From assembly GCA_030917445.1 (NCBI GenBank), contig JAUPUR010000016.1, forward strand, positions 1 through 47,411: a stretch of 47,411 nucleotides of DNA, read 5' to 3'. Shown in pieces: positions 1,005 through 28,181 of this stretch. The notes below the pieces were generated by a model that was given only the letters and a program-made list of their open reading frames with translations, was not told the origin of the DNA and ran no database searches. The stretch's first letter is position 1, and each line of letters begins with the position of its first letter. The stretch comes from Patescibacteria group bacterium. GTDB taxonomy: Bacteria > Patescibacteriota > Microgenomatia > Levybacterales > UBA12049. The translations under genes and the position numbers were made by a program.

Positions 1005-3158
1005 TTAAGCAGAGTGTTGATCTTGGAGACTTGTCAAATACTCATCTGCATTACGGACGAGAACATCTCGTGGTTTTGAACCTGCACCCGGACCAATAAT
1101 TCCAGACTCTTCTAATTGATCAATTATTCGTGCAGCACGTGAATATCCAATCGCCATTTTTCTCTGCAGAAATGATGCAGATGCAGTATCAAATTGACAG
1201 ACGATTCTCACCGCTTCTTCAAACATGACATCTCTTCCATCTCCTGATCCTTCACCTATTCCTGCTTTACCTCTTCCGCCACTAACTGGCTGAGTAAGTA
1301 CTTCTTCTGTATATTCAACTGGGAAATTACTACTCTTTAAGAATTCAACTAACTTCTTCACTTCTTTTTCAGAAACAAAAGCACCCTGAATTCGTGTTGG
1401 CTTTGAAGATTCAGGTGGAACATAAAGCATATCTCCTCGACCAAGAAGTTTTTCTGCGCCTGGTCCGTCAATTATTACACGAGAGTCAATCATTGATGAG
1501 ACGTTAAAAGCAATCCGACATGGAATATTTGCTTTAATCAAACCTGTAATAACATTCACGGAAGGACGCTGTGTCGCGATAACAAGGTGAATACCTGTTG
1601 CACGAGCCATTTGAGCGAGACGAGCAATAGCATCCTCAACCTCGACAGGGGCAAACATCATAAGGTCTGCTAACTCGTCAATCACTATAACAATGTATGG
1701 AAGAGCTTGAAATCCAGATAATTCATTGTACCCTTCAATATTTTTTACACCACGTTCTGCAAATAATTTATATCGACGATCCATCTCCGTCATACTCCAC
1801 TTCAGTGCCGAAAGTATCTTATCCACTTCAACAATAACGGGAGTTAACAAATGAGGAATACCATTATATGCAGTAAACTCTACTCTCTTTGGATCAACGA
1901 GAATAAGTTTTACCTCTTGCGGAGATGCTCTAAAGAGAAGGGAACAGATAAATGAATTTACCAGAACCGATTTTCCAGATCCTGTTGTTCCAGCTACAAG
2001 AACGTGAGGCATTTTGGCTATATCAGCAATTAATGGACTTCCAGAAACATCAAGTCCCATAGAAACAGCAAGTTTATTCTTTGCTTTCTGCATAATGTTT
2101 GAACTAAGCATCGTACGGAGAGTAACAACTTCTAGAGATCTATTTGGAATTTCAATACCAACAAGATTTCTTCCGGGAATAGGAGCTTCAATACGAATTT
2201 GACCAGTCGGAGCTTCAGTTGCAAGAGCTAAGTCATTTGCAAGTGATGTAATCTTTGATACTTTTGTGCCAAGTGCTATTTCAAGTGCGTACTGAGTAAC
2301 AGCAGGCCCCAAATTAACTTCAGCTACACGAGCATCTACACCAAAGCTTTGCAGAGTATCCTCAATTTTTTTAGCGATCTTATTGATATCCCCTCTTTCT
2401 GCCTTTGCTCCTGGATTTTCTGCAAGTAGAGACAAAGGTGGATACTCCCATATTCCATTTCCAGTTTCTGAAAGAACATTTGAGACAAGTTTTGCAGAAA
2501 TGAGCTCTTCTGGCTCTTTCTTATTTATAACAGGAGCAGGCGCACCCTTACCAAGTGGGGGAGACTGATCAACCTTTTGGCCACCTTTTATTGAGATTGG
2601 CCTACTTCTATCAAGCAGTGAGGTCTTCCCATCCTTTTCACTCTTTTGGAAAAGTGATGTAGGGAACAACCTATGTATATTTCCACCCAGCATCTGAAGA
2701 AACTGGAAAATTTCGTCAACCGATGTATCAAAAAACACAATATTTCCTACGATCAGTCCACCTATAAAAATAACTGAAGCTCCAGGAGTGGTAACAATGT
2801 TTTCTAAGATCTCAAACATTCCTATTCCAATTGATCCACTTTGAGTAAGACCCAGAAGTGATACAAAAAAAACAAGAAACCCAAAGGCAACGTGAGCTTG
2901 AGAAAGAAAGAATTTTTTAAAATGAAGCATGAAAAATGCAAAAAAGAAGAAAATAAACGGAAGAAGAAAAGCAACTCCACCAAATTTATCAGAAATCATA
3001 TCATTCAATGATATTGCTGAAGAACCGCTACGAGTAAATGAAATAAGAAGAAGTGCACATGCTAAAAAAAGTCCAACAGCAAAGAGGTTATAGATTGTAT
3101 TTTTCTTTAATTTTACTTTTCCCGATCGTCGTCGGGTTGGGCGGCGTTTTGATTTCAT
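1005..3158 (-). CDS. ftsK: DNA translocase FtsK/SpoIIIE
   Basis: N-terminal TM helices. Walker A GTTGSGKS, Walker B VIVIDELADLM, and a C-terminal gamma winged helix (ASASFLQRKMAIGYSRAARIIDQLEESGIIG). The ORF-track start at 3194 is TTG. The first ATG (MKSKRRP) is at 3158. Confidence 0.94.
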   Translation of the reverse strand: MKSKRRPTRRRSGKVKLKKNTIYNLFAVGLFLACALLLISFTRSGSSAISLNDMISDKFGGVAFLLPFIFFFFAFFMLHFKKFFLSQAHVAFGFLVFFVSLLGLTQSGSIGIGMFEILENIVTTPGASVIFIGGLIVGNIVFFDTSVDEIFQFLQMLGGNIHRLFPTSLFQKSEKDGKTSLLDRSRPISIKGGQKVDQSPPLGKGAPAPVINKKEPEELISAKLVSNVLSETGNGIWEYPPLSLLAENPGAKAERGDINKIAKKIEDTLQSFGVDARVAEVNLGPAVTQYALEIALGTKVSKITSLANDLALATEAPTGQIRIEAPIPGRNLVGIEIPNRSLEVVTLRTMLSSNIMQKAKNKLAVSMGLDVSGSPLIADIAKMPHVLVAGTTGSGKSVLVNSFICSLLFRASPQEVKLILVDPKRVEFTAYNGIPHLLTPVIVEVDKILSALKWSMTEMDRRYKLFAERGVKNIEGYNELSGFQALPYIVIVIDELADLMMFAPVEVEDAIARLAQMARATGIHLVIATQRPSVNVITGLIKANIPCRIAFNVSSMIDSRVIIDGPGAEKLLGRGDMLYVPPESSKPTRIQGAFVSEKEVKKLVEFLKSSNFPVEYTEEVLTQPVSGGRGKAGIGEGSGDGRDVMFEEAVRIVCQFDTASASFLQRKMAIGYSRAARIIDQLEESGIIGPGAGSKPRDVLVRNADEYLTSLQDQHSA

Positions 3159-3164
3159 ACTACT

Positions 3165-3194
3165 AGTATAAGAAGTTTTTCCATCATAACACAA
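3165..3194 (-). promoter_or_regulatory. Putative sigma70-type promoter of ftsK (TTGTGT-18-TATACT), -10 box 6 nt from the ATG
   Basis: Minus strand reads TTGTGTtatgatggaaaaacttctTATACTagtagtATG. No SD sequence. The geometry implies a leaderless mRNA. Confidence 0.35.
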
Positions 3195-13603: not shown

Positions 13604-13632
13604 ACTCTAAGAGCAACTCCATTTAGTGTCAA
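13604..13632 (-). promoter_or_regulatory. Putative promoter of the vWA gene (TTGACA-17-TAGAGT), -35 overlapping the upstream TGA stop
   Basis: Minus strand reads TTGACActaaatggagttgctctTAGAGTagtgatATG. The -10 box is 6 nt from the ATG. Confidence 0.4.
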
Positions 13633-16034
13633 GAAACAACGATATTAAATTCATTGTTTTCAACTGAAACAACAATGGTGCTCCCTCTCACTATTTCATT
13701 TGAAAGCATTTTTTTTGAAATGAGATCTTCAAGTGTATCTTGTATATAACGTCTTATTGGACGGGCACCGAACTGTGGATCAAATCCGTCAAGCGAAATT
13801 TTTTCTATCACTTTATCGCTAAATGAAATATTTATATCCTTTTCTTTCATTCTTAAAATAAGTTCTTCAAGAAGTAGCTTTGATATTTTTGCAAGCTCAT
13901 CAGTATTTAATGGTCTAAATGTCACAATATCATCAAATCTATTTAATAATTCTGGTTTAAATAACTGCTGAGTTTGAAGAAAATCTACAAGCTTTTTTGA
14001 ATCAAGAGTTCTTCCATTTTTAACTTCTTCGCTAATATACGCGGAACCAGCATTTGATGTTGCGATAATAATAGTATTAACAAAAGAGATAGTTCTACCC
14101 TTATTATCAGTGAGTCTTCCATCATCAAGTACTTGCAAAAAGAGATCTAAAATTCTTGGATGTGCTTTTTCAAATTCATCAAGAAGAACTAAAGAATAAG
14201 GATTGTCTTTTACCTTCTCTGTTAACTCACCTCGTTCGTCTCCATCACCAGGAGCTGAGCCTAACAATCTCTTTTCACCACTACTATCAGCGTATTCACT
14301 CATATCAAGCCGTATCATGGAGCGTGTCCCACCAAAATATATTTCAGAAAGTGTTTTTGCAGTCTCTGTTTTACCCACACCTGTTGGACCCAGGAATAGA
14401 AACGAAGTTGGGCGTTTTTTATCAACCATTCCTGATCGAAGTCTTCGAAGTGCCTGAGAAAGGACTTTAATAGCCTCATCTTGACCAACAATTTTTTTAT
14501 GAAGTGTTCCTTCTAGATTGAGCAGTAATTCTTTTTCTTTTTGATCTGGTTCAGAAAGTGCAATATGTGTCTTATCTTCAACAGACTTTGTCACTATTTC
14601 TGCTGTAACATATCTTTTTTTTGTAAAACTCATAACAGGGGAGGATGATTGGAGAACTCTTTCTGCAGTATCTTGAAGAAGTCTAATAGCACTTCCAGGA
14701 AGCTGCATATCTTGCATATATCTATCTCCTAGAGCAACTGCTGCAACAATCGCATTGTATGTAATTGCAATTGATGACCTTTTCTCAAGATCAGTACTAA
14801 ACTCCATCAACATTCTTCGAGCTAACTCTTCTTCAGGCTCGGTAAGAGTTATTGGAGTAAAAAGTTGAGCAAGTGGCTTACCTTCAAGGTAGGTTTTGAA
14901 ATTCCCTGGAGTAATGGATGCAACAATTGGAAATTCACCACTCTGTAAATATGGATACAGAGCTCCAGAAAGATCCATAGAGAATGATGAAGATCCTAAA
15001 ATGTCTTGCAATTCTGGGATATACATGATCACATTTCCTGAATGAGATACCTCTTCAATAATAGCTTGAAGCCTTGTTTCAAGATCTCCTCTGTTTGCTG
15101 CGCCTGCAATAAGTGGCCCTACAAGAATTTCAAGTATTTTCTTGTGTCTTGTATGTGGAGTACTTTTCCCTGTATAACTATCAATTGCAAAACGCCTCAT
15201 TATTCCTTCTTTTCCCGATCCTTGCTCACCAACGAGAAGAATATTATTGTTTTGTGGCTTTGCCAGTGTTTCTTGAAAAAGTTCAAACTCTTTCTCACGT
15301 CCGAAAACGGATGTATTTTTCTGCATTGCATCAAAACTAAAATCTCGGGTATATTTCTGAGTCTCAGGAGTCCATCCAGTTACTAGGCCATCTCCAACGC
15401 CACTACCACTTAAATGTACTTCTAATTTTTGAGGTTTCTCTTCATTCTGGAACTTGAACCTTGTCCATCTCAAAATATTCATAAAATCACTTTCTCTAAG
15501 TTTTTTTGAAAGAAGTAGTTTCACATCTTTCTCAACATACAGAATATATGCTGCTAAAATGTCTGCAGTCGTTATGTACGTTCCATCGACAGACTTTGCG
15601 AGTTTATAAGCGTATTTAATGAGAGTACCTGCATCGATTTGACTATGAGGCAATTCTTGAGGCGAAATCTGAGCTCTTTCAAGAAGAAAATGTGCTTGTT
15701 TTGTAGATAGTAAATGAACAACGAGGTCTTCAGCAGATTCTGAACTGTAGAGAGCATATAAAACAGCTTGAGTACATGCTGCAATCGCTTCCTCTTCATT
15801 TATATTTTGCAATGTCTGGGCAGGTTTTAAACGAGATACTTTGTAGCGATAAAAAATCTCTGTCATGAGAAAAATATTGAGAAAAAATAAAGGCAAACTA
15901 TAATCGCCTTGTTGTGACAAAACCCCAAAGAGAACCAGTAATAAACAAACAAAGATAAAAAGTCTGACCGTACGTACTAGTGCTGATCTATAAAAAGCAT
16001 AGAGAGTAATAAATTGTTTTTGTGACGCTACCAT
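13629..16034 (-). CDS. Membrane-anchored Hsp100/Clp-family double-AAA+ protein with degenerate D1 ring and no pore-loop aromatics
   Basis: Two N-terminal TM helices and a Clp_N-like repeat region. D1 Walker A is GEQGSGKEG (Thr->Glu), D1 Walker B is IMYIPELQ (Asp->Pro), and the D1 pore loop is AGAANRGDLE (no Tyr). D2 is intact for ATP binding (GPTGVGKT, LVLLDEFEKAHP, GARPIRR), but its pore loop is GSAPGDGDERGE instead of GAPPGYVGYEEGG. Confidence 0.85.
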   Translation of the reverse strand: MVASQKQFITLYAFYRSALVRTVRLFIFVCLLLVLFGVLSQQGDYSLPLFFLNIFLMTEIFYRYKVSRLKPAQTLQNINEEEAIAACTQAVLYALYSSESAEDLVVHLLSTKQAHFLLERAQISPQELPHSQIDAGTLIKYAYKLAKSVDGTYITTADILAAYILYVEKDVKLLLSKKLRESDFMNILRWTRFKFQNEEKPQKLEVHLSGSGVGDGLVTGWTPETQKYTRDFSFDAMQKNTSVFGREKEFELFQETLAKPQNNNILLVGEQGSGKEGIMRRFAIDSYTGKSTPHTRHKKILEILVGPLIAGAANRGDLETRLQAIIEEVSHSGNVIMYIPELQDILGSSSFSMDLSGALYPYLQSGEFPIVASITPGNFKTYLEGKPLAQLFTPITLTEPEEELARRMLMEFSTDLEKRSSIAITYNAIVAAVALGDRYMQDMQLPGSAIRLLQDTAERVLQSSSPVMSFTKKRYVTAEIVTKSVEDKTHIALSEPDQKEKELLLNLEGTLHKKIVGQDEAIKVLSQALRRLRSGMVDKKRPTSFLFLGPTGVGKTETAKTLSEIYFGGTRSMIRLDMSEYADSSGEKRLLGSAPGDGDERGELTEKVKDNPYSLVLLDEFEKAHPRILDLFLQVLDDGRLTDNKGRTISFVNTIIIATSNAGSAYISEEVKNGRTLDSKKLVDFLQTQQLFKPELLNRFDDIVTFRPLNTDELAKISKLLLEELILRMKEKDINISFSDKVIEKISLDGFDPQFGARPIRRYIQDTLEDLISKKMLSNEIVRGSTIVVSVENNEFNIVVS

Positions 16035-16357
16035 ATTAAGATGAGAACTGTTAAGACTGGAAAAAGTAAAAATCCACCCAAAAGAAAAAGCTCCACAAGT
16101 AACAATCCTGCAAATAATAAAAGATCTACTACTATGAATATTGTTTTTACAGCTATTCCCATCCCTAGTGAAAATCCAACAAGCCCTTTTCTGTATTCAT
16201 TTTTAAGCGGTTGAAAATAGGTTCTGAGAAAGAGTGGAAGTGAAAAGAGTTGAAAAAACGCTTGATTTAATGAAAGAAAATAATCAAGCATTCTCGAAGG
16301 TACCTCAAAATACCAAAACCTAAAGAAATATAATGGGAGTGTGAGCAGTAATGGCAT
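16028..16357 (-). CDS. Small polytopic membrane protein (hypothetical), 7-nt overlap with downstream Clp-like gene
   Basis: 109-aa hydrophobic ORF with ATG at 16357. Its stop TAG overlaps ATG 16034 (ATGGTAG). Confidence 0.5.
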   Translation of the reverse strand: MPLLLTLPLYFFRFWYFEVPSRMLDYFLSLNQAFFQLFSLPLFLRTYFQPLKNEYRKGLVGFSLGMGIAVKTIFIVVDLLLFAGLLLVELFLLGGFLLFPVLTVLILIW

Positions 16358-16400: not shown

Positions 16401-19055
16401 TTAGTTTACTGCAGCGGAAGCAGAGGGAACTGAAGGTTGTTGAGGTTCTTCTTTTTTCAAAAATGGCGGACTAAAATCTGGAGTAGCAAACTGAGCCTGC
16501 TCTTGTGGCAGCGGTAAAGATTGACCTACACTACTAGGTGATTGTGGAGGAGTAATAGGTTGAGGAATTGAAGAATCTACCACATCTGTTTTTATCTCAT
16601 TTGACTGAGTTGTCACTGTTGGAGACTGCTCTTGATTCACCTGTGTTCCAGCACCTTTTGCAAAAACAAAAGTTGCTTTTGTACTATCGTAATCAATAAG
16701 AATAGTATCTCCTGGTACAAATGATTTATTTATCAAGAGAAGTGCTATCTGATTCTCAATCGAAGTCTGTATCAATCTTCGAAGCGGACGAGCTCCATTC
16801 GCAGGATCGTATCCTTCATCAGCTAGTTGTGCAAGAGCTTTATCTGAAGTTTGAATATGATAACCTTGTTCTTCAAGAAGTTTGGCGGTTTTTGAAATAC
16901 CAAGCTTTGCGATTTGCGACATATCTTGTCTTCTCAAAGGTTTAAAGATCACAACATCATCAAATCTATTCAGAAGTTCTGGTCTAAAGAATTTTCTTAA
17001 TTCGCCATTTACCATACTTGATAATTCAGCAAATTGCTTATCAAAGCTTTCTTGTGTTGAACCTGATGGAGCTTCTGATTTTTCTGACAATTGTTGTTGA
17101 ATAAGAGCACTTCCAATATTTGATGTACAAATAACAATTGTATTCTTAAATGAGATTGTATTACCTTTATTATCAGTTAATCTGCCGTCTTCAAGAAGTT
17201 GAAGTAAAATATTGAATACATCAGGATGAGCTTTCTCAACCTCATCTAACAAAACTATTGAGTACGGTTTTGAACGAACTGCTTCTGTCAACTGTCCACC
17301 TTCTTCATATCCCACATAACCTGGAGGTGCCCCTATGAGCTTTGCAACTTCATGTTTTTCCATGTATTCACTCATATCTAATCTCACAAAAGCATCATCT
17401 TTGCCAAAAAGAAGTTCCGCTAATGCTTTTGCTAATTCAGTCTTTCCGACTCCTGTTGGACCAAGAAAAATAAATGAAGCGATTGGCCGATTTGCTGGAG
17501 CCAAACCGATTCTTCCACGTCTCACTGCTTCTGAAACGGCTTTTACTGCCTCGACCTGGTCAACGAGTCTCTCATGGATTTTGTCTTCCATCTTAAGTAG
17601 TTTTTGACTTTCATCTTCAGTTAGTTTTGTGATTGGAATTCCAGTCCAATCTGATACTACTTTTTCAATATCTTTTTTTACCACTTGGGTGTCTTGTCTT
17701 TTGCCTCCACCATTTGCAAGCTTCACTTCTGCAGCAGCCTCATCGAGAAGATCCACTGCCTTATCAGGAAGATATCGTTCTCCAATGTATTTTTTAGACA
17801 ATTTAACCGCAGCAACAAGAGTATCCTCTGGAAGCGTCACTCCGTGGAATTTCTCATATTTCCCCTTTAAAACTTTAAGCATTTCAACAGCAACATCTTC
17901 AGTTGGTTCTTCTGCAATAATTGGTTGGAATCGACGCTCAAATGCTTTATCCTTCTCAAAATGTTTTCTATATTCAGTTGTGGTCGTTGTACCAATAATC
18001 TGCATATGACCTCGTGCTAAATGGGGTTTTATTATATTGGATGCATCTAATGCTCCATCAGTATCACCAGCACCAATAAGAGTGTGAATTTCATCAATAA
18101 AAAGAATTATTTGACCTTCTGAAGCAATTGTTTCATTAATAACACCCTTCAACCTTTCTTCAAATTCTCCTCTATGTGACGCTCCCGCAACTAGTGAAGC
18201 AAGATCTAGTTGAAATATCTTTCTTCCACTTAATTCCTTTGGTACTTGAGATGAAACAATTTTAAGTGCAAGTCCCTCAACAATTGCTGTCTTTCCCACA
18301 CCTGCTTCTCCTATGATAATCGGATTATTTTTTGTTCTTCTCAGAAGGATATGAGTAAGTCTTTCTGTCTCTTTGTCTCGACCTGCAATTGGATCGAGTT
18401 TTCCTGCACGAGCCTCTTCAGTCAAATCAATAGCAAATTGTTCAAGGACAGATTTCTTTCCACCTTTTGCAAAGTTACCTGTTTTTGTGATCTTTTCAGT
18501 TAATGCCTGTCTTGATATTCCTTTATCTTGAATTTTCTTCGCAGCTTCGAGATCACTATTGCAAAACACAAGAAGTAAATCCTCTGGTGTCACAAAACTT
18601 GCATTTCTCCCCTCAGCCTCTCTATATGCTTTTTCAAAAAGTGCAGTTGAGTCATTACTCAAAGTTGGCTGACCACTAAAAGTCCCTAACTGCTCTTTGC
18701 CTTGAAGTTCTTGTGCGAGTTTTGCGACATCAACATCAAATTGTTCAAGGAGTTTAAAAACAGCTTCATCATACAAAAGCCCAATGAGTAACTGATCAGG
18801 TTCTATAAGTGGTTGTCTAATTCTTTTTGTCTCATCTTGGGCGTGATGAAGCACTTGAGTTGTCCGAGAATCAAGATGAGAAAGAGCTGATAAATTTTGT
18901 CTAAATGACGGATCCATCCGTGAACCTACAGCAGAAGACTGCCCAGGATCACTCGGCGGTGTTTGTGTATCGGAAGGAGTATTCTGATGAGTATTCTCAG
19001 GAATTTGTTGCTCTCCTTTTTGATCTTTATGTTGGCTGAACAGGTTACCAAGCAT
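16401..19055 (-). CDS. Hsp100/Clp-family double-AAA+ chaperone (ClpA-like architecture: no M-domain, no IGF/L ClpP loop) with disordered N- and C-terminal extensions
   Basis: Clp_N repeats. D1 has GEAGVGKTA and ILFIDEIHTLIGAG. D2 has GPTGVGKTE, VLLDEVEKAHPDVFN, GAPPGYVGYEEGG and GARPLRR. Only ~10 residues lie between DEAAAEVKL and VVSDWTGIP, where the ClpB M-domain would sit. Confidence 0.9.
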   Translation of the reverse strand: MLGNLFSQHKDQKGEQQIPENTHQNTPSDTQTPPSDPGQSSAVGSRMDPSFRQNLSALSHLDSRTTQVLHHAQDETKRIRQPLIEPDQLLIGLLYDEAVFKLLEQFDVDVAKLAQELQGKEQLGTFSGQPTLSNDSTALFEKAYREAEGRNASFVTPEDLLLVFCNSDLEAAKKIQDKGISRQALTEKITKTGNFAKGGKKSVLEQFAIDLTEEARAGKLDPIAGRDKETERLTHILLRRTKNNPIIIGEAGVGKTAIVEGLALKIVSSQVPKELSGRKIFQLDLASLVAGASHRGEFEERLKGVINETIASEGQIILFIDEIHTLIGAGDTDGALDASNIIKPHLARGHMQIIGTTTTTEYRKHFEKDKAFERRFQPIIAEEPTEDVAVEMLKVLKGKYEKFHGVTLPEDTLVAAVKLSKKYIGERYLPDKAVDLLDEAAAEVKLANGGGKRQDTQVVKKDIEKVVSDWTGIPITKLTEDESQKLLKMEDKIHERLVDQVEAVKAVSEAVRRGRIGLAPANRPIASFIFLGPTGVGKTELAKALAELLFGKDDAFVRLDMSEYMEKHEVAKLIGAPPGYVGYEEGGQLTEAVRSKPYSIVLLDEVEKAHPDVFNILLQLLEDGRLTDNKGNTISFKNTIVICTSNIGSALIQQQLSEKSEAPSGSTQESFDKQFAELSSMVNGELRKFFRPELLNRFDDVVIFKPLRRQDMSQIAKLGISKTAKLLEEQGYHIQTSDKALAQLADEGYDPANGARPLRRLIQTSIENQIALLLINKSFVPGDTILIDYDSTKATFVFAKGAGTQVNQEQSPTVTTQSNEIKTDVVDSSIPQPITPPQSPSSVGQSLPLPQEQAQFATPDFSPPFLKKEEPQQPSVPSASAAVN

Positions 19056-19094: not shown

Positions 19095-22000
19095 TTATGT
19101 TTTCTCTTCTGCCTCAAGTGAAGGATTTAATATCTCTGATTTTTTTATTGAAATGTCTACTTTTGTCTCCTCACCCTCTTCTATTGCTTTAAGTGTTTCA
19201 AGCGCCATTTTTCCAGCCTCAAGTTTTGCTTTCAAATATCCTATGACTTCTTCTTTACTAAATCCACCTATCAGGAGGAAAGGGAGAATATCTCGAACAA
19301 GATCTAGTCCGTCCTGCACATCATTTGGATTTGAAGATGACAGAAGATTTATTACATCAGTGATTTGTTTTTGATCACCTTGAATCCACTCTTCTCTTGT
19401 TTGCTCATTTTCGCCAAGTTTTGGAACATCTGAATGAAGATAAATTTCGTACCACATCTTTTTCACAGCTTCATAATCATCAAGACTTACCTGCTGCAAT
19501 CGATTTTGAAGTGGGAGTATAAAAGGAGAGAATTTTTTTGATCTTTGTTTTTTATCAAAACCGTCAATAATTCTTGAAGCTATCGGATGCTTCAAACCTT
19601 TTTCCTTAATTACTTCTTTATAAAAACTCATGGTTTTATCAATTGTTTCTTTTGATGGAGTAAGAAGTGTCATAACAATATACTGAGCAAGTGGATCTCC
19701 ACTCTCAGACGATTTCATAACGAAGGTTTGAAGTTCATTTGCTTTCTCCTCGGTCAATGTCCCTTTTGTCATCTGCAAAAGTTGAGAAGCAAACTCGTGT
19801 GAACTTTCTTCTTGATGAAGTCTCTCTATGAGTTTGGTTATCTCTATCTTCTCAGTTGCAGTCCCTATTTCCTGTGGACGAGATAATTTATTTGCAAACC
19901 GTATCATCTCATTTCCTTGAAGTTGTCTCACTTCTTGAATAAAATTATTTAATCTCTCTACAAAAGCATCCTGCTTAAGTTCTGATGAATGAAGAGTTTT
20001 TTGAATTTCTTTTTCATCAGATGACAAGGTGTCTGTATTTGTTTGATTGACTGAATTTTCTACAAATTGAAAGAATGTTAATGCCTCACTCTCAGATAAT
20101 GATTCACTCTCTGTAAGTGATGTTGCACTGAGAAGTGACTCAGCAGTTTTATTCCCTTTACTACTTTCCCTTTGGAGTTGTTGACGGATCTGTTCATATT
20201 TTTCTTTTTCAGATGGTATTAACGTCTCAGGATGTGCGAGTGATGATAATACTTGAGAAACAATATGATCTTGTGAATTATTTTTTTCGTATTTTTCTTT
20301 TTCGAAAATCACAATATCTTTCATTGTTGGAAGTGTTAAATTTACAAGATTTAATATATCCCCATCATTTTGTATATTTGATGTGGAAACTGGAGATGAA
20401 TTAATAAGAGTTGGAGAAGTTAAAATTGAATCTGTCTGTGGTCTATCTGACGAATCTGATATTTCTCGTGCAACATCTGCAGACATATGCCTAACAGTTT
20501 GCGTTGATTTTCTCTCAGTATCAAGTAAAGTTTCATCTTCTTCAATTTCTTCCTGAACATCTTCCATAACACTTTTTCCAGCTTCAAGTTTTGCTTTCAA
20601 ATATGCAACTATCTCTGTTTGACTAAATCCACCTATGAGTAGGAAAGGCAATATATCTGCAACTTCTTTCATACCTTCTTCAATATCTGATTCATTTTGT
20701 GAAGTAAGGAGGCTAATCGTTTTTTCTATCTCAGTCATATCAGACGTAATCCATTCTTTGCGTGTTTGTCTTCCATTAATATTTTCAGGGACATCTAATT
20801 CTTTATAATTTTCTTTCCACATCTTTTTTACAGCTTCATAGTCATCAAGACTTACTTGCTGTATTCTGTTTACAACAGGGAATGTGCCCGCCTTAGCTTT
20901 TACTGTTGCAGACAATGGAACGGAGACCATTGTTGATTGCTTCTGAGAGATAAGTCCAAGAAGTAGTGTTGCAAGTGGATCACCTTGTTTCTTTGCTTCC
21001 TCAAGTTGAGTTCTTATTTTTTCTGAATCCCAATCTGCTGTGCTTGTTGAATTCTGAGTTCTTTGAAGAATTTCAGTCGCTAAAGGATTATTCTGACTGC
21101 TTGATTGAAGTAACTCTGTATGTATATTCTGTATATCTTGTACTGATAGTTTGTTCTCAATTGATTTAACAATTTTTGTTGCTGTCTGATTTCCTGATTT
21201 ACTTTCTTTAATAAGTTTTTCGTAAAGACTTTGATACTGTATACGCTCTTTTTCATTCTGAATTAACTCTGAGTGTGTTATCTTCTCGAGAACATTTGTT
21301 AAAGCAACTGTTTGAGAGACTTGAGACGAGGAAGCAGTTTTCAGGATTTCAGTCGCTAAAGGATTCCCTAGTGACTGTGCCTTTATTAATTCTTGCTGTA
21401 CGAATTTCACCTGCTCAACTGAGGTAGACTTATCTAGTGACTCTTTAATCAATGTTGCTAATTGATTTCCTGATCGACTTGCGTCAGTTATTTTTTCACG
21501 AAGTTTCTCGTATTGTACTCTCTCTTTTTCAGTTGAAATTTTTTCGGTATTTGATAACTTTTGAAGAACAGATTGTAGTGAAGTTTGCTCTTTTGTTTCA
21601 TTAGTGACAGAGGAAATATTACTTAAAATTGTTTTGACATACTCCTTACTCGAATTTGAAACAGTATTTAATTTTTCTCTTATCTCAATAATTTTTTCTC
21701 TTTCTGATGTATTGGTGACAGTAGATGGATTTGCTAATTGTTGAAGAATTGTTTGAAATGATTGATTAGATTGTGTTGAAGTATTACTTGATGAATACGA
21801 GGCAATTGTTCCAGCTGCATTGAGAATTGATGTAGAAATCTGATCTCCCTGCTTACTTTGTGCAACTAAGCTTTCTCGAATTTGTCTAAATCTTTCTCTC
21901 TCAGCAGGTGTAGATACTTGTGTTGGATTTGCAATATTTTTAAGGATATTACTCGTTCTTTCTTTTTCTCTCTGTAATACTGCTTTACTTGTTATCTTTT

Positions 22001-23357
22001 CTTTTTCAAACCGGGCAATATCTCTCATGGTAGGGATAGATAGTGAAGTGAGTTGTGATATCTTTGTTGTTTGTGAGCGAGCAATAGACGTTGGTCTATT
22101 AACTTGAGTTTTTTGTGAGATTGATGTTGCACGAGGAATCTCGCGCGCAAGACCTGTATTCGCAGGCGCAGTATATTTTCGAGCAAAAGGAAGATTGCGT
22201 GCAAGACCTGTATTCGCAGGTCCAACCGGTACAATAGGTGTTTTTGGATTTGCAGGTGGAATTATACGTGAATTTATAAGACCTAACATCTGTTTGTATG
22301 CTGGGCTTTCTCTATAATTAAATGACATCATATAGTCTAAAAATATTTGTAAGAGAATAAATGGCAGAATTATTACAATCCAAAGCATAATCAATGAAAC
22401 CAAGTAAAGAGCAAATGTATCGGGGAGATTGACACTATTATTAATGCCAACCTTTTGTCCTGGTCCACCAAGGAGAATATTGACAGCTGTTGGATAGATT
22501 ATTTGAGATTTATCACCGATCCCTGCAGGATTGAAAAAAAGTGGAAGACTTGTCTGCCATAATCTCACAAGTCCTGAAAGAAATATCGCAAACAGCGGAG
22601 CATACATTAGCCATCTAAAAAATTCACCAATCCAAATCTTCCCTGTATTTCTGACAGGATAAAAAAGTAGAAGTATAGGAAAAACAGGCGAAATAATAAG
22701 GAAAAACCATAAAATAATCTTTCTGATAATGAGGAGAATTGCCATCACGTAATACGTAAAAGCAGTTAGCTTTACAAAAAGTAGTGAGGTGAAAGCTGTT
22801 TCGTCAAATTCTGTTCCAAACCGCCGTAGTCCCTCAAATGTTCGATAATCAAATCCAATAAAGAGTAAATCTCTTGATGAAATAATAGCTCCTTGAGGGT
22901 TACGCAAGAAAAATCCTTGAAAGATATCAATAATTTGATACAAAAACTGCACGAGTGAAAATGAAAATGTAACAAGTAAAATGACAAGGAGGAATCTAGG
23001 TAAAAATCTTTTAGCTGACAAGCTTTTTCCTCGTGTCACAATAAGAATAAATGAGGTGATCATAATAACCACAAGGAAAAGCGCAAAGACTATTCTCTGG
23101 ACAACCTGCCAAAATGGAATAAGTGGATTTGTAGCATTATCATAATTTTGCGCAGTCCATCGATAATCTCTCAATGTCCAATCAAGAAGCATTCCTGATC
23201 GCGATGCATTTTTACCAATTTTTGTCACCTCTGCGTCTCTTATCCAGGCTCCAACTTGTGGAAGCTCATCTTCTTGAGCGTGTACTGGTTGAGGAATCAA
23301 GAAAAAGATAAACGCAATACTCAGTACAAGTAATAATTTAGGCAGCAGTAATTTCAT
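19095..23357 (-). CDS. Giant (1420 aa) polytopic membrane protein: signal peptide, ~6-8 TM N-terminal domain (possible VirB6/TrbL-like role), ~1050-aa repetitive helical extension
   Basis: Signal peptide MKLLLPKLLLVLSIAFIFFLIPQPVHAQ and a hydrophobic block to ~aa 345. Ser/Thr/Gln/Glu/Lys-rich repeats and a duplicated 117-aa domain follow. The ATG is 2 nt after the stop of the pilin-like gene. Confidence 0.85.
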   Translation of the reverse strand: MKLLLPKLLLVLSIAFIFFLIPQPVHAQEDELPQVGAWIRDAEVTKIGKNASRSGMLLDWTLRDYRWTAQNYDNATNPLIPFWQVVQRIVFALFLVVIMITSFILIVTRGKSLSAKRFLPRFLLVILLVTFSFSLVQFLYQIIDIFQGFFLRNPQGAIISSRDLLFIGFDYRTFEGLRRFGTEFDETAFTSLLFVKLTAFTYYVMAILLIIRKIILWFFLIISPVFPILLLFYPVRNTGKIWIGEFFRWLMYAPLFAIFLSGLVRLWQTSLPLFFNPAGIGDKSQIIYPTAVNILLGGPGQKVGINNSVNLPDTFALYLVSLIMLWIVIILPFILLQIFLDYMMSFNYRESPAYKQMLGLINSRIIPPANPKTPIVPVGPANTGLARNLPFARKYTAPANTGLAREIPRATSISQKTQVNRPTSIARSQTTKISQLTSLSIPTMRDIARFEKEKITSKAVLQREKERTSNILKNIANPTQVSTPAERERFRQIRESLVAQSKQGDQISTSILNAAGTIASYSSSNTSTQSNQSFQTILQQLANPSTVTNTSEREKIIEIREKLNTVSNSSKEYVKTILSNISSVTNETKEQTSLQSVLQKLSNTEKISTEKERVQYEKLREKITDASRSGNQLATLIKESLDKSTSVEQVKFVQQELIKAQSLGNPLATEILKTASSSQVSQTVALTNVLEKITHSELIQNEKERIQYQSLYEKLIKESKSGNQTATKIVKSIENKLSVQDIQNIHTELLQSSSQNNPLATEILQRTQNSTSTADWDSEKIRTQLEEAKKQGDPLATLLLGLISQKQSTMVSVPLSATVKAKAGTFPVVNRIQQVSLDDYEAVKKMWKENYKELDVPENINGRQTRKEWITSDMTEIEKTISLLTSQNESDIEEGMKEVADILPFLLIGGFSQTEIVAYLKAKLEAGKSVMEDVQEEIEEDETLLDTERKSTQTVRHMSADVAREISDSSDRPQTDSILTSPTLINSSPVSTSNIQNDGDILNLVNLTLPTMKDIVIFEKEKYEKNNSQDHIVSQVLSSLAHPETLIPSEKEKYEQIRQQLQRESSKGNKTAESLLSATSLTESESLSESEALTFFQFVENSVNQTNTDTLSSDEKEIQKTLHSSELKQDAFVERLNNFIQEVRQLQGNEMIRFANKLSRPQEIGTATEKIEITKLIERLHQEESSHEFASQLLQMTKGTLTEEKANELQTFVMKSSESGDPLAQYIVMTLLTPSKETIDKTMSFYKEVIKEKGLKHPIASRIIDGFDKKQRSKKFSPFILPLQNRLQQVSLDDYEAVKKMWYEIYLHSDVPKLGENEQTREEWIQGDQKQITDVINLLSSSNPNDVQDGLDLVRDILPFLLIGGFSKEEVIGYLKAKLEAGKMALETLKAIEEGEETKVDISIKKSEILNPSLEAEEKT
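19155..19505 (-). repeat. Copy 2 of intragenic 117-aa domain (NRLQQVSLDDYEAVKKMW..ILPFLLIGGFS..YLKAKLEAGK)
   Basis: Similarity to 20520-20870 is visible at both protein and DNA level. Example: cagcttcataatcatcaagacttacctgctg versus cagcttcatagtcatcaagacttacttgctg. Confidence 0.9.
20520..20870 (-). repeat. Copy 1 of intragenic 117-aa domain (NRIQQVSLDDYEAVKKMW..ILPFLLIGGFS..YLKAKLEAGK)
   Basis: Same length as, and colinear with, 19155-19505. The offset is 1365 nt. Confidence 0.9.
22147..22220 (-). repeat. Direct 20-bp repeat gcaagacctgtattcgcagg, two copies 54 nt apart (encodes PANTGLAR twice)
   Basis: Exact copies at 22147-22166 and 22201-22220, inside the giant ORF just after its TM domain. 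Confidence 0.9.
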
Positions 23358-23359
23358 TT

Positions 23360-23665
23360 TTATCGGGAAAATCCAGGTATAGCTAAAATATCAATCAATA
23401 CAACCTCAATAAAGAGATATCCAAAAATTGCAAGAAGAAGACCCAAGATTGCATAAAAAATATAACTTTTACCTGAGTTGATCTGAGAAGGATTCCCCCT
23501 TGATGTTAAAATGACATACCCGCCAATTATGACGAAAAGAAGTGCAACTCCCCCAATAAGACTCAGTCCAATAGTATAAAATCTTCCGATAAATTGAATT
23601 GGATCAATAGGCAGACACCCTATCTGGGTCATTGTTTCATTGACTGGGCACATAACATACAGCAA
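23360..23665 (-). CDS. T4SS-pilin-like (VirB2/TrbC-type, CPR 'T4SS_pilin' family) two-TM miniprotein
   Basis: CP..GCLPIDP..F cysteine motif, then TM1 (LSLIGGVALLFVIIGGYVIL), TSRGNP, and TM2 (IFYAILGLLLAIFGYLFIEVVL). No room for a signal peptide, because a stop lies immediately upstream. The start is TTG 23665, or ATG 23653 or 23632. Confidence 0.6.
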   Translation of the reverse strand: MLYVMCPVNETMTQIGCLPIDPIQFIGRFYTIGLSLIGGVALLFVIIGGYVILTSRGNPSQINSGKSYIFYAILGLLLAIFGYLFIEVVLIDILAIPGFSR

Positions 23666-23731: not shown

Positions 23732-24601
23732 TTAAAACCAACTTTTTTTACCATTTTCTTTTTCAAAATTCTCTAGAAGTTCTTTTTGTTTTTTGTTAAC
23801 AGACTTTGGAATAACAATTTTAACTCTGACATAATGATCACCTTTATTTGTACTTTGAAGTCGCTGAACACCCTTTCCCCTCAATCGGATGAGAGTCTCA
23901 GGTTGAGTTCCTGGAGGAATCTTAATACTAATTTTTTCATCGATTGTCTCAATCTCGACTGTATCTCCTAATACTGCTTGAGGAAATGATATTTCTTCAA
24001 TGGTAACGATATCAGATCCCTCCCTCTGAAATCTTTTATCAGCAGCTACATCAAACACAAGATCAAATTCACCAAACCTCATTCTCACTCCCGTATCAAC
24101 ACCAGGAGGAATTTTTATTTTTTGTTTTTTTCCATCAATATTTACTTCTTTTTCAGCTCCTTTAATTGCTTCTTGGAATGTAAGGGAAAGTGAGTATACT
24201 GGCCTTCTTTGACGGCTACCAAACGGTGATGCTCCACCAAAAAATTGTTCAAAAATATCAAATGGATCTGAAAATCCTCCAAAATCCTGAGATTGACCGT
24301 TTCCGCCTGTTGAATATGAATAAGAGAATGGCCCATAGCGGCCACCCTGCCCACCAAAAGGACCACCAGCTCCAGCATTTTCAAATGCGGCTTCACCATA
24401 CTGATCATATGCTTGACGTTTACTCACATCAGACAAAACTTCATAAGCCTTTGTAATTTCTTTAAATTTACTTTCTCCTTCTTTTGTTTTATTTCGATCA
24501 GGATGATACTGAAGAGCAAGTTTCCGATATGCCTTTTTTATCTCATCTTGAGTTGCTGATTTAGCGACACCTAAAACTGAATAATAATCATTACTTGCCA
24601 T
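23732..24601 (-). CDS. dnaJ: J-domain co-chaperone, class B architecture (J domain, G/F region, C-terminal domains, no zinc finger)
   Basis: [21 protein letters not shown], then a G/F-rich stretch. The whole 289-aa product has zero cysteines, so the CxxCxGxG repeats are absent. Confidence 0.9.
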
Positions 24602-25034
24602 TTGCTTGTTCTCCTTCTTGGTTTTTTCTTTTCTTTGAATTCAGTCTCGTATTTTCTTTTGCTGTATCAAGTGCCACTCTAATTTCAGCCACCATTTTAC
24701 TCCATTGTTCAGGCGACATCCGACGAGTTGGTTCAACTGGTGTCAATGTCTGATCACTTAACCATGATGGTTCTTTCTCATTGAATGTGTCTTCTCTATC
24801 AGTTTCACGACTAACTTCAGTATTTGGGTTCGCCAGCAGAGCTCGCTCCTTGTGAAGTCTATCTATTTCATCTCGTTGTGTTGAAAAAGGTTGTCCCATA
24901 TTACTTAATCTATCAATTTCTTCGCCGATAAGGTAAATCTGAGTATCAATTTTCTCAATTCTTTGTATTACGTCATTATCAAGTGAAATAGGAGTCAGAG
25001 GAGGCTCAACGAATTCGTTATTTTTTTCCGTCAT
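24591..25034 (-). CDS. Hypothetical 147-aa charged/coiled-coil protein inserted between dnaK and dnaJ
   Basis: The ATG at 25034 overlaps the dnaK 3' end by 17 nt (ATGACGGAAAAAAATAA). The stop overlaps the dnaJ start by 11 nt. Without this ORF there would be an untypical ~416-nt gap. I recognise no motif. Confidence 0.55.
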
Positions 25035-26919
25035 CAACAACTTCTCCTTCCACCGGCTCATCAGATGATTTTGCCTCGGAAGAAGTATCTGAAGCATCTT
25101 GTGTTTCAGAAGGTTGCTCAGCTTGAGGGTTTTGAGACATTGCTTGCCCGACTTTCTGAAGACTTTCTGAAAGTTCCTGTGTTTTTGTCTGTAACTCTTC
25201 TTTTGTTCCAGTATCTAAAATTCCTTTTAGATTTGAGATTTTCTCACCTACTTCTTTTTTGAGATCTTCACTGACTTTATCTCCTGCATCTTTAAGAGAT
25301 TTTTCAGAAGTAAATATCAATGCATCTGCCTGATTTTTAGCTTCAATTTGCTCTTTCTTTTCTTCATCTTCCTTTGCATGGAGTTCTGCTTCTTTGGTCA
25401 TTCTTTCAACTTCCTCTTTTGATAGGCCTGTTGAACCTGTAATTTTGATACTTTGCTCTTTTCCAGAAGCTTTATCTTGAGCTTTTACATGTAAAAGTCC
25501 ACTTGCATCAATATCAAAGGTAACTTCAACCTGTGGCATTCCTCGAGGAGCAGGTGGAATACCGTCTAAAATAAATCTACCGAGTGACTTATTATCCTGA
25601 GCCATAGGGCGCTCTCCTTGCAAAATATTAATTTCCACTTGAGTTTGATTGTCAGACGCAGTTGAGAAAACTTGAGATTTGGATGTTGGGATGGTGGTAT
25701 TTCGTGGAATAAGTGGTGTAGATACTCCTCCAAGTGTTTCAAGTCCAAGAGTTAAAGGTGTGACATCTAAAAGAAGGACATCTTTGACATCACCTGAAAG
25801 TACTCCACCTTGTACTGCAGCTCCAATTGCAACAACTTCATCTGGGTTAACAGATTTATTTGGCTCTTTCCCAAAGAATTGAGAAACAGTTTCAACGATT
25901 TTTGGCATCCTTGTCATACCACCTACAAGTACAACCTCATCAATATCTGCTGCCTTCAGTGACGCATCACTGAGAGCTTTTTCAACTGGTTTAAGTGTTT
26001 TCTGAATAAGTTCATCAACAAGACTCTCTAACTTTGCCCGTGAAAGTGTCATGGTCAGATGAAGAGGACCTGCTGATCCTTGAGTAATAAATGGCTGATT
26101 GATTTGAGCTTCTTGAGAAACAGAGAGTTCAATTTTTGCTTTTTCAGCAGATTCTTTCAATCTTTGAAGTGCTTGTGGATCCTGTCTTAAGTCCACAGAA
26201 TTTTCCTTCTTAAATTCATCAGCAATATAATCGATTATAACTTGATCAAAATCATCTCCCCCAAGATGAGTATCTCCATTTGTGGACTTAACTTCAGTTA
26301 CTCCATCGCCAAGTTCAAGGATTGAGATATCAAATGTACCTCCACCTAGATCATAAACTGCAATTGTATGTGCATTTTTCTTATCAAGTCCATATGCAAG
26401 AGCTGCAGCAGTTGGTTCATTAATAATTCTCTTAACTTCAAGTCCAGCAATTTCTCCTGCCTGCATCGTTGCTTGTCTCTGACTGTCGTCAAAATATGCT
26501 GGAACAGTAATAACCGCTTCTGTTACTTTTTCACCAAGATAACTTTCCGCGTCAGCCTTTATTTTTTGAAGTATTTGTGCAGAAATTTCTTGAGGTGTGT
26601 ATGTTTTTCCATCTACTTCAACAACTGCCATATCATCTCTTCCGGCTTTGACAGTATAAGGAAGAAGTTTTATGTCTTTCTGTACGGAAGCATCACTAAA
26701 TTTTTTCCCCATAAGACGTTTGACAGAAAAGATTGTTTCTCTTGGCTTCAAAACCATCTGACGTTTTGCAACGTCTCCCACAACATGTGTTTTAGGATCT
26801 ACAACTGATGGAATAACATTTCTTCCTTCAGCTGAATGAATAACTTTGGGAGATCCTCCCTCCATTACTGCGACACATGAGTTTGTTGTACCTAAATCAA
26901 TTCCAATTATTTTTCCCAT
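25018..26919 (-). CDS. dnaK: Molecular chaperone DnaK (Hsp70)
   Basis: [31 protein letters not shown]. 633 aa. Confidence 0.97.
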
Positions 26920-26925
26920 AATTTA

Positions 26926-27390
26926 TTATTCCTTTTCTCCATTCCCAACGATTACTTGAGCTGGTCTTAAGAGCTTATCATGTAAGAGGAACCCTGCACG
27001 TACCTCTGATATAACAACCTCTTTTTCTCCATTTTGTGTTGTAATAACTTCCATGTGAGTAGGATCAAAATGTTGACCGATAGTCTCCATTCGAATTATT
27101 CCTTCTCTTTTAAGCGTATCTAGAAATTGTTGAGTACAGATCTTAAGCGTTTGATCTTCACTATGCAGACCTGCCATAAGTAATGTATCCAAAATTGGCA
27201 AAAATCGCAAGATTATATCTTTATTCGCTGATCTTATGAGATCGCCTCTTTCATCTCTAACCCGCTTTTCAAGGTTCTGATAATCAGCCAGTGCTCTTTT
27301 GTACTTGTTCTCCCATTCGCTTATCTGATCATCTTGAATTTCTTCTTCTTTTTCTTCTTCGTCTTGAATTTGTGTTGTATCGTCTGTCAT
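26926..27390 (-). CDS. grpE: Nucleotide exchange factor GrpE
   Basis: ALADYQNLEKRVRDE coiled coil and a C-terminal beta domain. ATG 27390 lies 1 nt after the hrcA stop, and the longer ORF-track start would overlap hrcA. Confidence 0.9.
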   Translation of the reverse strand: MTDDTTQIQDEEEKEEEIQDDQISEWENKYKRALADYQNLEKRVRDERGDLIRSANKDIILRFLPILDTLLMAGLHSEDQTLKICTQQFLDTLKREGIIRMETIGQHFDPTHMEVITTQNGEKEVVISEVRAGFLLHDKLLRPAQVIVGNGEKE

Positions 27391-27391
27391 T

Positions 27392-28129
27392 TTACCAACC
27401 CTTTGCCATTGATTCAATAAGTGTTCCAAAATAACGAACTGTTGGAACTACCGTCGTGTAATTTAACCTTACAGGACCGATGACGCCAATTTCTCCAGAA
27501 CCATGCTCTGGTGTCTCATAATGAGTAAATACAAAACTATATGGACCTGTCAACTCCTGTCCAAGCTCATCCCCCATCAATATATAAATATCCTCACCCA
27601 TGGTTGCATACGGTTGTTTACATAATTTATGAAAATAATCGTATTCATCAAGCGTTGAAAGTAAAGCTTTTGTGATATCTATATCAAAAAACTCTGGCAT
27701 ATCTAAAATGTTTGCATATCCTGAGGTAAGAACATCACCTTCATTTGTTGTTGCAATTGCAAGTGCACCTGTTTTATGTGCAAGTGATTTTGTTGCTTCT
27801 TTTAAAAATCGCTGCATAGTCTCACGGTAGTCCCAAATTTTTTCTTTGAGCGCAACTTCCTCAACTGTTGAAAGGACTTTCTCTTTCATTAACTCTTTTA
27901 CATAAAATTTCATTCCCATTGGAGTAGGCACACGACCTGCGGATGAATGAAGCTTTTTTAAGTAACCAAGTTCTGAAAGTCTTACCATTTCATTTCTGAT
28001 TGTGGCTGGTGATGCACTTAGACTATACTTCTTTTCTAAAGTCTCAGATCCCACAGCATCAGCTGTATTAATATATTCTTCAATAATTGCTTTTAAAATA
28101 TGTACCTGTCTTTGTGTAAGATTATGCAT
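27392..28129 (-). CDS. hrcA: Heat-inducible transcription repressor HrcA (short, 245 aa)
   Basis: LTQRQVHILKAIIEEYINTADAVGSETL..SPATIRNEMVRLSELGYL..HSSAGRVPT. A cognate CIRCE element lies directly upstream. Confidence 0.9.
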   Translation of the reverse strand: MHNLTQRQVHILKAIIEEYINTADAVGSETLEKKYSLSASPATIRNEMVRLSELGYLKKLHSSAGRVPTPMGMKFYVKELMKEKVLSTVEEVALKEKIWDYRETMQRFLKEATKSLAHKTGALAIATTNEGDVLTSGYANILDMPEFFDIDITKALLSTLDEYDYFHKLCKQPYATMGEDIYILMGDELGQELTGPYSFVFTHYETPEHGSGEIGVIGPVRLNYTTVVPTVRYFGTLIESMAKGW

Positions 28130-28144
28130 AAATGTAATACAGAA

Positions 28145-28171
28145 TTAGCACTATAATATCAGGAGTGCTAT
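28145..28171 (-). promoter_or_regulatory. CIRCE operator (HrcA binding site)
   Basis: TTAGCACTA-TAATATCAG-GAGTGCTAT versus consensus TTAGCACTC-N9-GAGTGCTAA (16/18 arm positions). It begins 15 nt upstream of the hrcA ATG and overlaps the -10 box. Confidence 0.88.
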
Positions 28172-28181
28172 TTTTTGTCAA
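28153..28181 (-). promoter_or_regulatory. Promoter of hrcA-grpE-dnaK operon (TTGACA-17-TATTAT)
   Basis: Minus strand reads TTGACAaaaaatagcactcctgaTATTAT. Interleaving with CIRCE is the classical arrangement. Confidence 0.55.

Follow-up and report, generated by a model that had tools for sequence, protein, structure and literature searches.

Patescibacteria carry widespread chromosomal type IV secretion systems (T4SS), which are built by VirB4, TrsD, PrgI/VirB3, VirB6 and VirB2-like pilins of the PF18895 family (Quinonero-Coronel et al. 2025, PMC12102498). These systems are usually located near dnaA, usually without a relaxase (PMC12102498), and are essential in Southlakia (PMC12102498, PMC12857230). 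In Microgenomatia, VirB6 was reported to be "scarce", "suggesting extreme sequence divergence" (PMC12102498). Here we describe a pair of adjacent genes, coding for a small pilin-like protein and for a 1420-amino-acid (aa) membrane protein with a long modular tail, in a contig of 47,411 nucleotides (nt) from a Levybacterales member of the Patescibacteria (JAUPUR010000016.1, assembly GCA_030917445.1); the window refers to this whole stretch. The pair is probably the VirB2-like pilin and the VirB6-type platform of a Patescibacteria T4SS-like surface apparatus, encoded away from virB4, as suggested by sequence profiles, structure models and analogy with described systems. The best-supported reading is that of a Levybacteria-specific extended VirB6 and its pilin, which belong to a known machine and not to a new machine type.

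With the described Patescibacteria T4SS (PMC12102498, PMC12857230) the locus shares the phylum, the association of PF18895 pilins with VirB6, the chromosomal location, the lack of a relaxase and the multiplicity of pilins in some genomes. In those systems virB4, trsD and prgI are the usual neighbours of the pilin and VirB6 genes, often by dnaA, whereas here the two genes lie in a heat-shock operon with no VirB4 near, and the VirB6 is divergent and has a giant modular tail. The best fold match is found with TrwI/VirB6 of R388, which forms a pilin-platform pair with TrwL/VirB2 (PDB 7O3V, 8RT9; PMC9259494). R388 VirB6 likewise has seven long and mostly hydrophobic helices. Its membrane-embedded part consists of alpha1 and alpha2 alone; VirB2 is proposed to be recruited at alpha1, and the top of the VirB6 pentamer is the pilus assembly site or base (PMC9259494). 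The likeness is limited to 12-18% identity and TM-scores of only 0.3-0.5, R388 VirB6 has about 340 aa and no tail, and its working partners VirB5, VirB3, VirB4 and VirB8 are not seen here, while the organism of the window has a monoderm envelope.

Large extensions of VirB6 are known from Anaplasma phagocytophilum, an obligately host-associated member of the Rickettsiales with multiple VirB2 genes, in which VirB6-3 and VirB6-4 join a TrbL/VirB6 domain to a large hydrophilic, repeat-bearing C-terminal extension whose length varies by strain (PMC7648143, PMC3556328), and whose repeats are trypsin-sensitive on intact cells (PMC7648143). The Anaplasma repeats are recent tandem repeats at the DNA level and the genes belong to a sodB-virB3-virB4 operon, whereas the tail described here is made of old duplicates with a conserved folded end domain, and the tail sequences are unrelated. 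The extended VirB6 of the Gram-positive MPF-FA group and TraG of the F plasmid also have a polytopic N-terminal domain followed by a hydrophilic C-terminal region, of 700-900 aa in MPF-FA (PMC12857230, PMC7648143). Unlike the present pair, they belong to conjugation operons that also encode VirB4 and a coupling protein. Their extensions, which are regarded as unstructured or as mating-pair or entry-exclusion domains, bear no similarity to the end domain found here. The extra domains of extended VirB6 proteins have no known role (PMC12857230). The pilin-like protein of the Mycoplasma integrative and conjugative element (ICE; NF045849) is also small, has two helices and comes from a monoderm T4SS; its model is matched weakly, with a score far below the cut-off, and its gene belongs to a mobile element and not to a chromosomal heat-shock operon.

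The pilin-like protein and its VirB6-like neighbour

The two genes, and the regions of the large protein that precede its tail, are arranged as follows.

23360..23653, (-) strand: VirB2-like/T4SS_pilin gene, 97 aa from the ATG at 23653, without a signal peptide, with a Cys pair, two hydrophobic helices and a positive loop
23360..23665, (-) strand: the same small open reading frame (ORF) read from TTG, 101 aa
19095..23357, (-) strand: extended VirB6-like gene, 1420 aa, which starts 2 nt past the pilin stop
23277..23357, (-) strand: predicted signal peptide, aa 1-27, ending VHA/Q, with Ala27 invariant in the family
22263..23276, (-) strand: likely VirB6/TrbL-like domain, aa 28-365, from TrbL profile, AlphaFold2 (AF2) and Foldseek
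22044..22262, (-) strand: Pro-rich and Ser/Thr/Gln-rich linker, aa 366-438

The pilin stop and the ATG of the VirB6-like gene are 2 nt apart (TAAaaATG), the spacing given by the first-pass annotation of this DNA. Close homologues of the small protein are of 97 aa and begin at the ATG at 23653 (MCPVNET...). Read from the TTG, the ORF meets an in-frame TAG 7 codons upstream, and the end of dnaJ is 67 nt away; the upstream stop and this short distance leave no room for an encoded signal peptide, as had been noted before. The 1420-aa gene is found again in two independent metagenome assemblies at 98.7-99.2% identity and is therefore not an assembly artefact.

By its profile matches and those of its relatives, the small protein is most probably a member of the T4SS_pilin (VirB2-like) family, which agrees with the proposal of the first-pass annotation. 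PF18895 is matched at E<=0.01 by 29 of 31 relatives of the window pilin (best 5.4e-8), many of which have a precomputed PF18895 hit, and the window pilin itself scores 26.1-26.2 bits against a cut-off of 26.6. The NCBIfam model of the Mycoplasma ICE pilin-like conjugal transfer protein, NF045849, gives a weak match (19.8 bits, cut-off 40, E 4.5e-4), while a PDB sequence search with the pilin-family profile returned only chance matches of the G-protein-coupled receptor (GPCR) type. The hallmarks named previously, which are a Cys pair, GCLP.DP, two membrane helices and a GNP turn, are all found: the window pilin has two Cys, GCLPIDP, hydrophobic helices at about aa 36-54 and 73-91 (101-aa numbering) and, between them, an RGNP...GK loop, TSRGNPSQINSGKSY, whose G, K and S residues are conserved. 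In the alignment of the family these appear as two conserved Cys, GC(L/I)P.DP, a Gly-rich helix 1, a (S/T)(R/Q)GNP...GKSY loop, helix 2 and a C-terminal IPGFS.

Members of the family come in two forms. The long form, of 127-151 aa, has a classical signal peptide with an AxA-type site directly before the first Cys (Cys-Pro), and the short form, of 93-101 aa, starts 1-4 residues ahead of this Cys. The window pilin has no signal peptide to be removed; the signal peptide of its orthologues is cut before the same Cys-Pro, and the 97-aa form is therefore the equivalent of their mature product. With a net acidic N-terminal tail and a basic loop, the pilin would fit an N-out/C-out hairpin like that of VirB2. 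The VirB6-like gene is the only T4SS-type gene that adjoins the pilin gene, which has no VirB4 gene as neighbour.

Arrays of pilin-family genes also adjoin the VirB6-like gene. A Daviesbacteria locus (L088, GCA_000991695.1, 1-6957) has four small ones and a 397-aa protein with a weak pilin match, and 12 Levybacteria loci carry 2-3 pilin-family matches each. These recall the divergent pilin arrays reported for Saccharimonadia.

The large protein begins with a predicted signal peptide, with a cleavage-type Ala27-Gln that is invariant in the family, followed by six more hydrophobic segments, all located in aa 1-340. The AF2 model of this domain, built from 31 sequences, has seven helices past the signal peptide (42-63, 79-108, 115-151, 182-229, 233-269, 312-345 and 352-365), with a pLDDT of 83 and a pTM of 0.76; a cleavable signal peptide and a block of about 6-8 membrane segments had also been read from the sequence at first. 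At least five long hydrophobic helices, as expected of VirB6/TrbL proteins, are thus present. The Pfam TrbL profile aligns aa 97-269 of the window protein on its positions 3-182 of 215; at E<=0.01 it picks up 15 of the 31 relatives (best 5.1e-7), and precomputed matches to PF04610 or PF19590 are on record for some homologues. A Foldseek search of the domain against 350,542 PDB chains places R388 TrwI/VirB6 at ranks 1-5 and 7, with probabilities of 0.99-0.51 (0.99, 0.97, 0.92, 0.80 and 0.60 for the top five), while the non-VirB6 matches all have probabilities <=0.11. A PDB sequence search with the membrane-domain profile gave only chance GPCR-type matches. Distant homology to VirB6 is accepted because two independent weak signals, from profile and from fold, agree on one family. 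The first ~365 aa are likely a divergent VirB6/TrbL-type domain, of which the window sequence is an outlier, and the VirB6/TrbL likeness proposed in the first-pass annotation is borne out to this extent.

Linkage of the two genes, which we use as a proxy for working together, was followed in a scan of one genome per species, which found relatives in 230 genomes; the best 80 were analysed, almost all of them Levyibacteriota. A pilin-family gene is directly upstream of the VirB6-like gene in 76 of 82 loci by a count based on hidden Markov models (HMM), and the prediction that the pair would be syntenic in relatives holds. This adjacency is also kept in relatives of 40-44% identity in unrelated contexts. 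Many records of the Levybacteria-type locus from metagenome-assembled genomes (MAGs; L006, L007, L009 and others) are titled "uncultured Gammaproteobacteria bacterium", an apparent placeholder or mislabel.

Modules and end domain of the tail

The C-terminal tail of ~1050 aa is hydrophilic (S 12%, T 11%, and K, E and Q about 9% each), and together with the membrane block it gives the protein the organisation of an extended VirB6, which has at least five hydrophobic helices and a large hydrophilic domain (PMC12857230). It has two modules, each with a C-terminal domain (CTD).

20478..22043, (-) strand: tail module 1, aa 439-960, with the motif LSIPTMRDIARFE, several helical "ER.KF..IR.KL...GNP.A..IL" units, CTD1 and an acidic stretch
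nt 20574-20885, (-) strand: CTD1, aa 825-928, in tail module 1
19098..20339, (-) strand: tail module 2, aa 1007-1420, with the motif LTLPTMKDIVIFE, helical units, CTD2 and an acidic C-terminus
nt 19209-19517, (-) strand: CTD2, aa 1281-1383, in tail module 2

The canonical single module follows the Pro-rich linker and is formed by an "NLSIPTMRDIA.(F/Y)E" motif, a helical unit ("ANP...ER.KF..IR.KL...KGNP.A.SIL"), a CTD of ~105 aa and an acidic stretch. The invariant residues of the CTD are N..Q.V...DYE..K..W..NY...P......ILP.LL.GGFS..E...YLKAK.EA.K, and no other part of the protein is as well conserved as the CTD, with its 67% mean column identity. In the window protein there are two modules plus several added helical units. 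Modules 1 and 2 have about 30% identity overall and 59% in the CTD, and no tandem repeats were found at the DNA level in the tail-coding region, from which an old duplication is deduced. AF2 gives an all-helical model of module 2, with 18 helices and a pLDDT of 84.7. Composition, model and the two modules at the protein level agree with the ~1050-aa helical repeat region rich in S, T, Q, E and K that had been described from the sequence.

Canonical relatives in the protein database are of ~670-690 aa, and the genome loci give a median of 810 aa from longest-ORF estimates. Among 77 complete relatives, which range from 524 to 2147 aa, the CTD is present once in 51, twice in 19, three times in 6 and is absent in 1. 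An exhaustive search with the CTD profile matched 334 of 1.84 billion cluster representatives, which all look like the same family, carry the CTD at most six or seven times and reach about 3,300 aa in length. Sequence searches of the tail and the CTD against Pfam and PDB gave nothing meaningful, and a fold search of the tail against PDB found no relative (best probability 0.10). Judged by these searches and by the model, the tail is a lineage-specific all-helical module, which most likely acts as a spacer plus a docking element for a conserved partner.

In L087 and L088 an apparent stand-alone CTD gene was considered and rejected: its frame is open upstream through NLSIPT/MRDIA and overlaps the VirB6-like ORF in another frame, as in a fused gene split by a frameshift. 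The split genes are located at 9628-11780 of L087 and 6964-9251 of L088, with the frameshift in the linker, and the annotation gives the tail with its CTD a gene of its own (238 or 249 aa), which starts at the Met within the conserved PTMRDIA motif. The split may stem from an assembly error, mark a pseudogene or reflect true frameshifting. Two of the four contigs that carry a locus near-identical to that of the window, L092 and L093, are cut off within the part that codes for the tail (at aa 829 and 652, respectively). This seems to be a place where assemblers break, and database lengths of the VirB6-like family would thus often be underestimates.

Gene order, regulation and the other genes of the window

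The genes around the pair are on the same strand.

16401..19055, (-) strand: Clp/Hsp100 AAA+ ATPase, 884 aa, conserved neighbour downstream of the pair
23732..28129, (-) strand: upstream heat-shock genes hrcA (27392-28129), grpE (26926-27429), dnaK (25018-26919) and dnaJ (23732-24601)
28145..28181, (-) strand: promoter (TTGACA-17-TATTAT) with a CIRCE-like repeat at 28145-28171, directly upstream of hrcA

In the analysed loci the same-strand order is hrcA-grpE-dnaK-(dnaJ)-pilin-VirB6-like-clp...orf109-clp2, and 62 of 71 loci have a Clp/Hsp100 gene <=200 nt downstream. The place of the pair between dnaK and clp is kept even in loci with dnaJ relocated downstream. The first-pass annotation described the pair as wedged between chaperone loci; it is instead part of a string that is stably inherited in about 80 species. 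More distant relatives, of 40-47% identity, have other gene orders. One of these, L005, has glycosyltransferases, then the VirB6-like gene and then clp; L087 has unrelated genes followed by the pilin, the VirB6-like gene and clp, with no dnaK; L088 has clp, a pilin, one other gene, three pilins and then the VirB6-like gene; and L086 has the pilin and the VirB6-like gene amid transposases, without clp and without dnaK. L089 has a tail-less VirB6-like paralogue, P0047, of 424 aa, without pilin.

The Clp genes of L005, L087 and L088 are orthologues of the Clp neighbour in the window, with 56-64% identity. The window Clp (16401-19055) matches the ClpA model in one stretch and ClpB models in two, with the middle-domain positions missing, and has no IGF-type ClpP loop; from its sequence it appears to be without the ClpB M-domain and the ClpP-binding loop. 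The second Clp/Hsp100 gene, at 13629-16034, has one Walker A motif only, which indicates that its first AAA module is degenerate, and both genes score well below the NCBIfam ClpB cut-offs. Between them lies a 109-aa ORF (16028-16357), whose position is kept in most related loci and which matches no Pfam or NCBIfam family. A 168-aa ORF (24591-25097), also with no family match, spans the 416 nt that separate dnaK from dnaJ, with an overlap at each end; it is called as 147 aa in the near-identical contigs L090-L093, and in L001 the gap is of 296 nt with no gene called.

Upstream of hrcA there is a near-consensus promoter with an extended -10 (TTGACA-17-TATTAT, 11/12), which is overlapped by the CIRCE-like inverted repeat TTAGCACTATAATATCAGGAGTGCTAT, with 2 mismatches and 0.01 matches expected by chance. 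This site likely controls the whole string, and the heat-shock string looks HrcA-regulated in this organism. The pair had been credited with a promoter-like element of its own, a claim that was not borne out: the hexamer site ahead of the pilin gene is a 9/12 match, and such matches are at background rate, with 38 found against 36.6 expected from shuffles. No convincing terminator was found between dnaJ, the pair and clp. The most economical reading is that the pair is probably co-transcribed with the heat-shock operon.

The other large ORFs of the window are housekeeping genes: FtsK with a gamma domain, RNase J, a Lon-like AAA protein, PNPase, IF-2, NusA, the two Clp/Hsp100 genes, hrcA-grpE-dnaK-dnaJ, MetRS, TatD, glycosyltransferases, LysRS, MurB and GreA; one solute-binding protein and one VanW protein are also present. 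None of the large window ORFs scanned is a VirB4, VirD4, VirB11 or relaxase, and the sole FtsK is of the chromosomal type with a gamma domain, so the earlier statement that no T4SS ATPase or relaxase is in the window stands. This FtsK (1005-3194) has alpha and gamma domains, and the Levybacteria "T4CP (t4cp1)" of Table S3 of PMC12102498, which is far from virB4, may be such an FtsK. The G+C content falls to 0.289 (43001-44052) near an ORF at 43156-44052 with a weak nucleotidyltransferase match, between the GreA/MurB genes and the solute-binding/VanW genes. The corresponding neighbourhood of L089 (3485-6984) holds the tail-less paralogue P0047, flanked by genes of 309 and 315 aa, and the place looks like a variable site.

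Readings of the pair

The presence of VirB4 in each genome was taken from published tables (PMC12102498 Tables S1 and S3), which cover draft MAGs with one HMM threshold. Two VirB4-positive Levybacteria of Table S3 have TrsD, VirB4 and two PF18895 pilins together, with no VirB6 listed, and the pair plausibly accounts for the VirB6 found scarce in Microgenomatia by that survey. Of the four drafts that carry the pair and have a VirB4 score, L019 and L077 are positive. The first-pass annotation had imagined a minimal device of unknown type, which goes too far: a Patescibacteria T4SS with VirB2-like pilins and VirB6 is already described (PMC12102498), and some Levybacteria with the pair are VirB4-positive.

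If the pair works as its R388 counterparts do, the pilin would insert in the membrane as a helical hairpin, and it would need no signal peptide, its mature N-terminus being made directly. The VirB6-like domain, after cleavage of its signal peptide, would oligomerise and recruit the pilin through its first membrane helix, and the top of the oligomer would be the base for a pilin fibre or channel. The C-terminus of this platform would carry one to about seven helical modules, two in the window protein, as a spacer plus docking for a conserved partner. The pair would be transcribed with the HrcA/CIRCE-controlled hrcA-grpE-dnaK-dnaJ...clp string.

Several points weigh against the assignment of the pair to a T4SS-like apparatus. 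The window sequences remain below the profile cut-offs (PF18895, E about 9e-6; TrbL, 18.4-18.9 bits against a gathering score of 25.9), and by its absolute scores (E 0.05, TM-score 0.36/0.48) the Foldseek match to R388 VirB6 is weak. No VirB4, TrsD, VirB3 or VirB8 was found within 10 kb in about 88 loci by BLAST with reference proteins, with precomputed Pfam annotation for 11 of them and the unlabelled ORFs of the other flanks not scanned systematically. VirB4 is scored in 20 of 44 Levybacteria drafts in the block of Table S1 examined (PMC12102498), and two pair-carrying drafts, L036 and L046, are negative; the Magasanikbacteria and Kaiserbacteria of the same study are almost all VirB4-positive (PMC12102498 Table S1). 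VirB4-positive Levybacteria already have two PF18895 pilins of their own beside VirB4 (PMC12102498 Table S3). Pilus or secretion activity of this family is putative.

These points leave place for a device that is independent of VirB4, in which the neighbouring Clp/Hsp100, possibly with DnaK/DnaJ, gives energy or unfolding and the tail domains dock the ATPase or substrates. An orthologue of this Clp (clpB1) adjoins the pair in four gene orders, which are the Levybacteria string, L005, L087 and L088, and it apparently lacks the M-domain and the ClpP loop; the CTD has a cytoplasm-like composition and the charge bias of the family favours a cytoplasmic C-terminus; and VirB4 is patchy among drafts of similar size, with Table S1 arithmetic giving about 852 kb for negative and 916 kb for positive ones, the negative ones including two that carry the pair. 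We nevertheless consider this device unlikely. Gene order within one lineage may reflect vertical inheritance or shared heat-shock regulation, the Clp may be a plain housekeeping disaggregase, no known secretion system pairs VirB6 with a Clp ATPase, the negative VirB4 calls come from draft MAGs and one HMM threshold, and by the R388 and Anaplasma analogy the tail is perhaps outside, beyond the reach of a cytoplasmic ATPase (PMC9259494, PMC7648143). The stronger form, by which Levybacteria and related Microgenomatia would have a self-standing VirB4-free envelope machine whose tail domains recruit Clp, and possibly DnaK/DnaJ, for pilin extraction or substrate threading, is very unlikely; if true, such a machine would be a chaperone-secretion hybrid not described before. 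It is likewise improbable that the pair is a T4SS-derived part of the heat-shock regulon for membrane homeostasis or envelope stress, which no longer builds a fibre or channel. Its stable place in the CIRCE/HrcA-controlled chaperone string, with no promoter of its own above background and no other T4SS genes nearby, would suit this role, but the pilin retains all the family hallmarks, including the extracellular Cys pair, it occurs in arrays typical of surface-exposed pilins (4-5 genes in L088; 2-3 matches in 12 Levybacteria loci), and in L086 and L087 the pair is found without dnaK.

Where the tail is located bears on a further proposal, which refines the T4SS-like assignment and does not exclude it: the tail may be a host-contact adhesin that a VirB6 stalk displays on the outside, similar to the surface-exposed extended VirB6 of Anaplasma. 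In the window family the loop 108-121 is strongly basic, loops 141-192 and 265-321 are either acidic or have few Lys/Arg, and the density of Lys/Arg rises about fivefold past the last hydrophobic helix. This charge bias favours an N-out/C-in topology, that is, a cytoplasmic tail, and the adhesin is further opposed by the strong conservation of the CTD, which fits a conserved partner better than variable hosts, and by the absence of Cys from the tail, in contrast to the conserved Cys pair in the exported portion of the pilin. On the other side, the AF2 model has the same seven-helix count as R388 VirB6, and if only two helices are in the membrane as in R388 (PMC9259494), everything past the second helix, tail included, could be outside the cell, which is where trypsin reaches the Anaplasma repeats (PMC7648143). 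The Pro-rich linker after the last helix, the number of modules, which ranges across species from one to about seven, and the S/T/N/Q content of 31-40% in the helical repeats fit a surface fibre. A surface location of the tail is possible, and the adhesin is a tentative proposal, somewhat short of an even prospect.

For the VirB2-like pilin and VirB6-type platform proposed here, the locus offers a concrete and near-universal VirB6 candidate in Levybacteria, placed in a heat-shock operon with a dedicated pilin, which would fill a gap of the only systematic survey of Patescibacteria T4SS. It would also represent a new type of extended VirB6, with one to about seven folded helical modules and an end domain found in a few hundred protein clusters worldwide; what extended VirB6 domains do is a question that the literature acknowledges (PMC12857230). 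The patchy VirB4 and the recurring Clp/Hsp100 neighbour raise the question of a pilin and VirB6 working without VirB4. The pair is a candidate component of the host interface in organisms that are thought to live attached to other cells.

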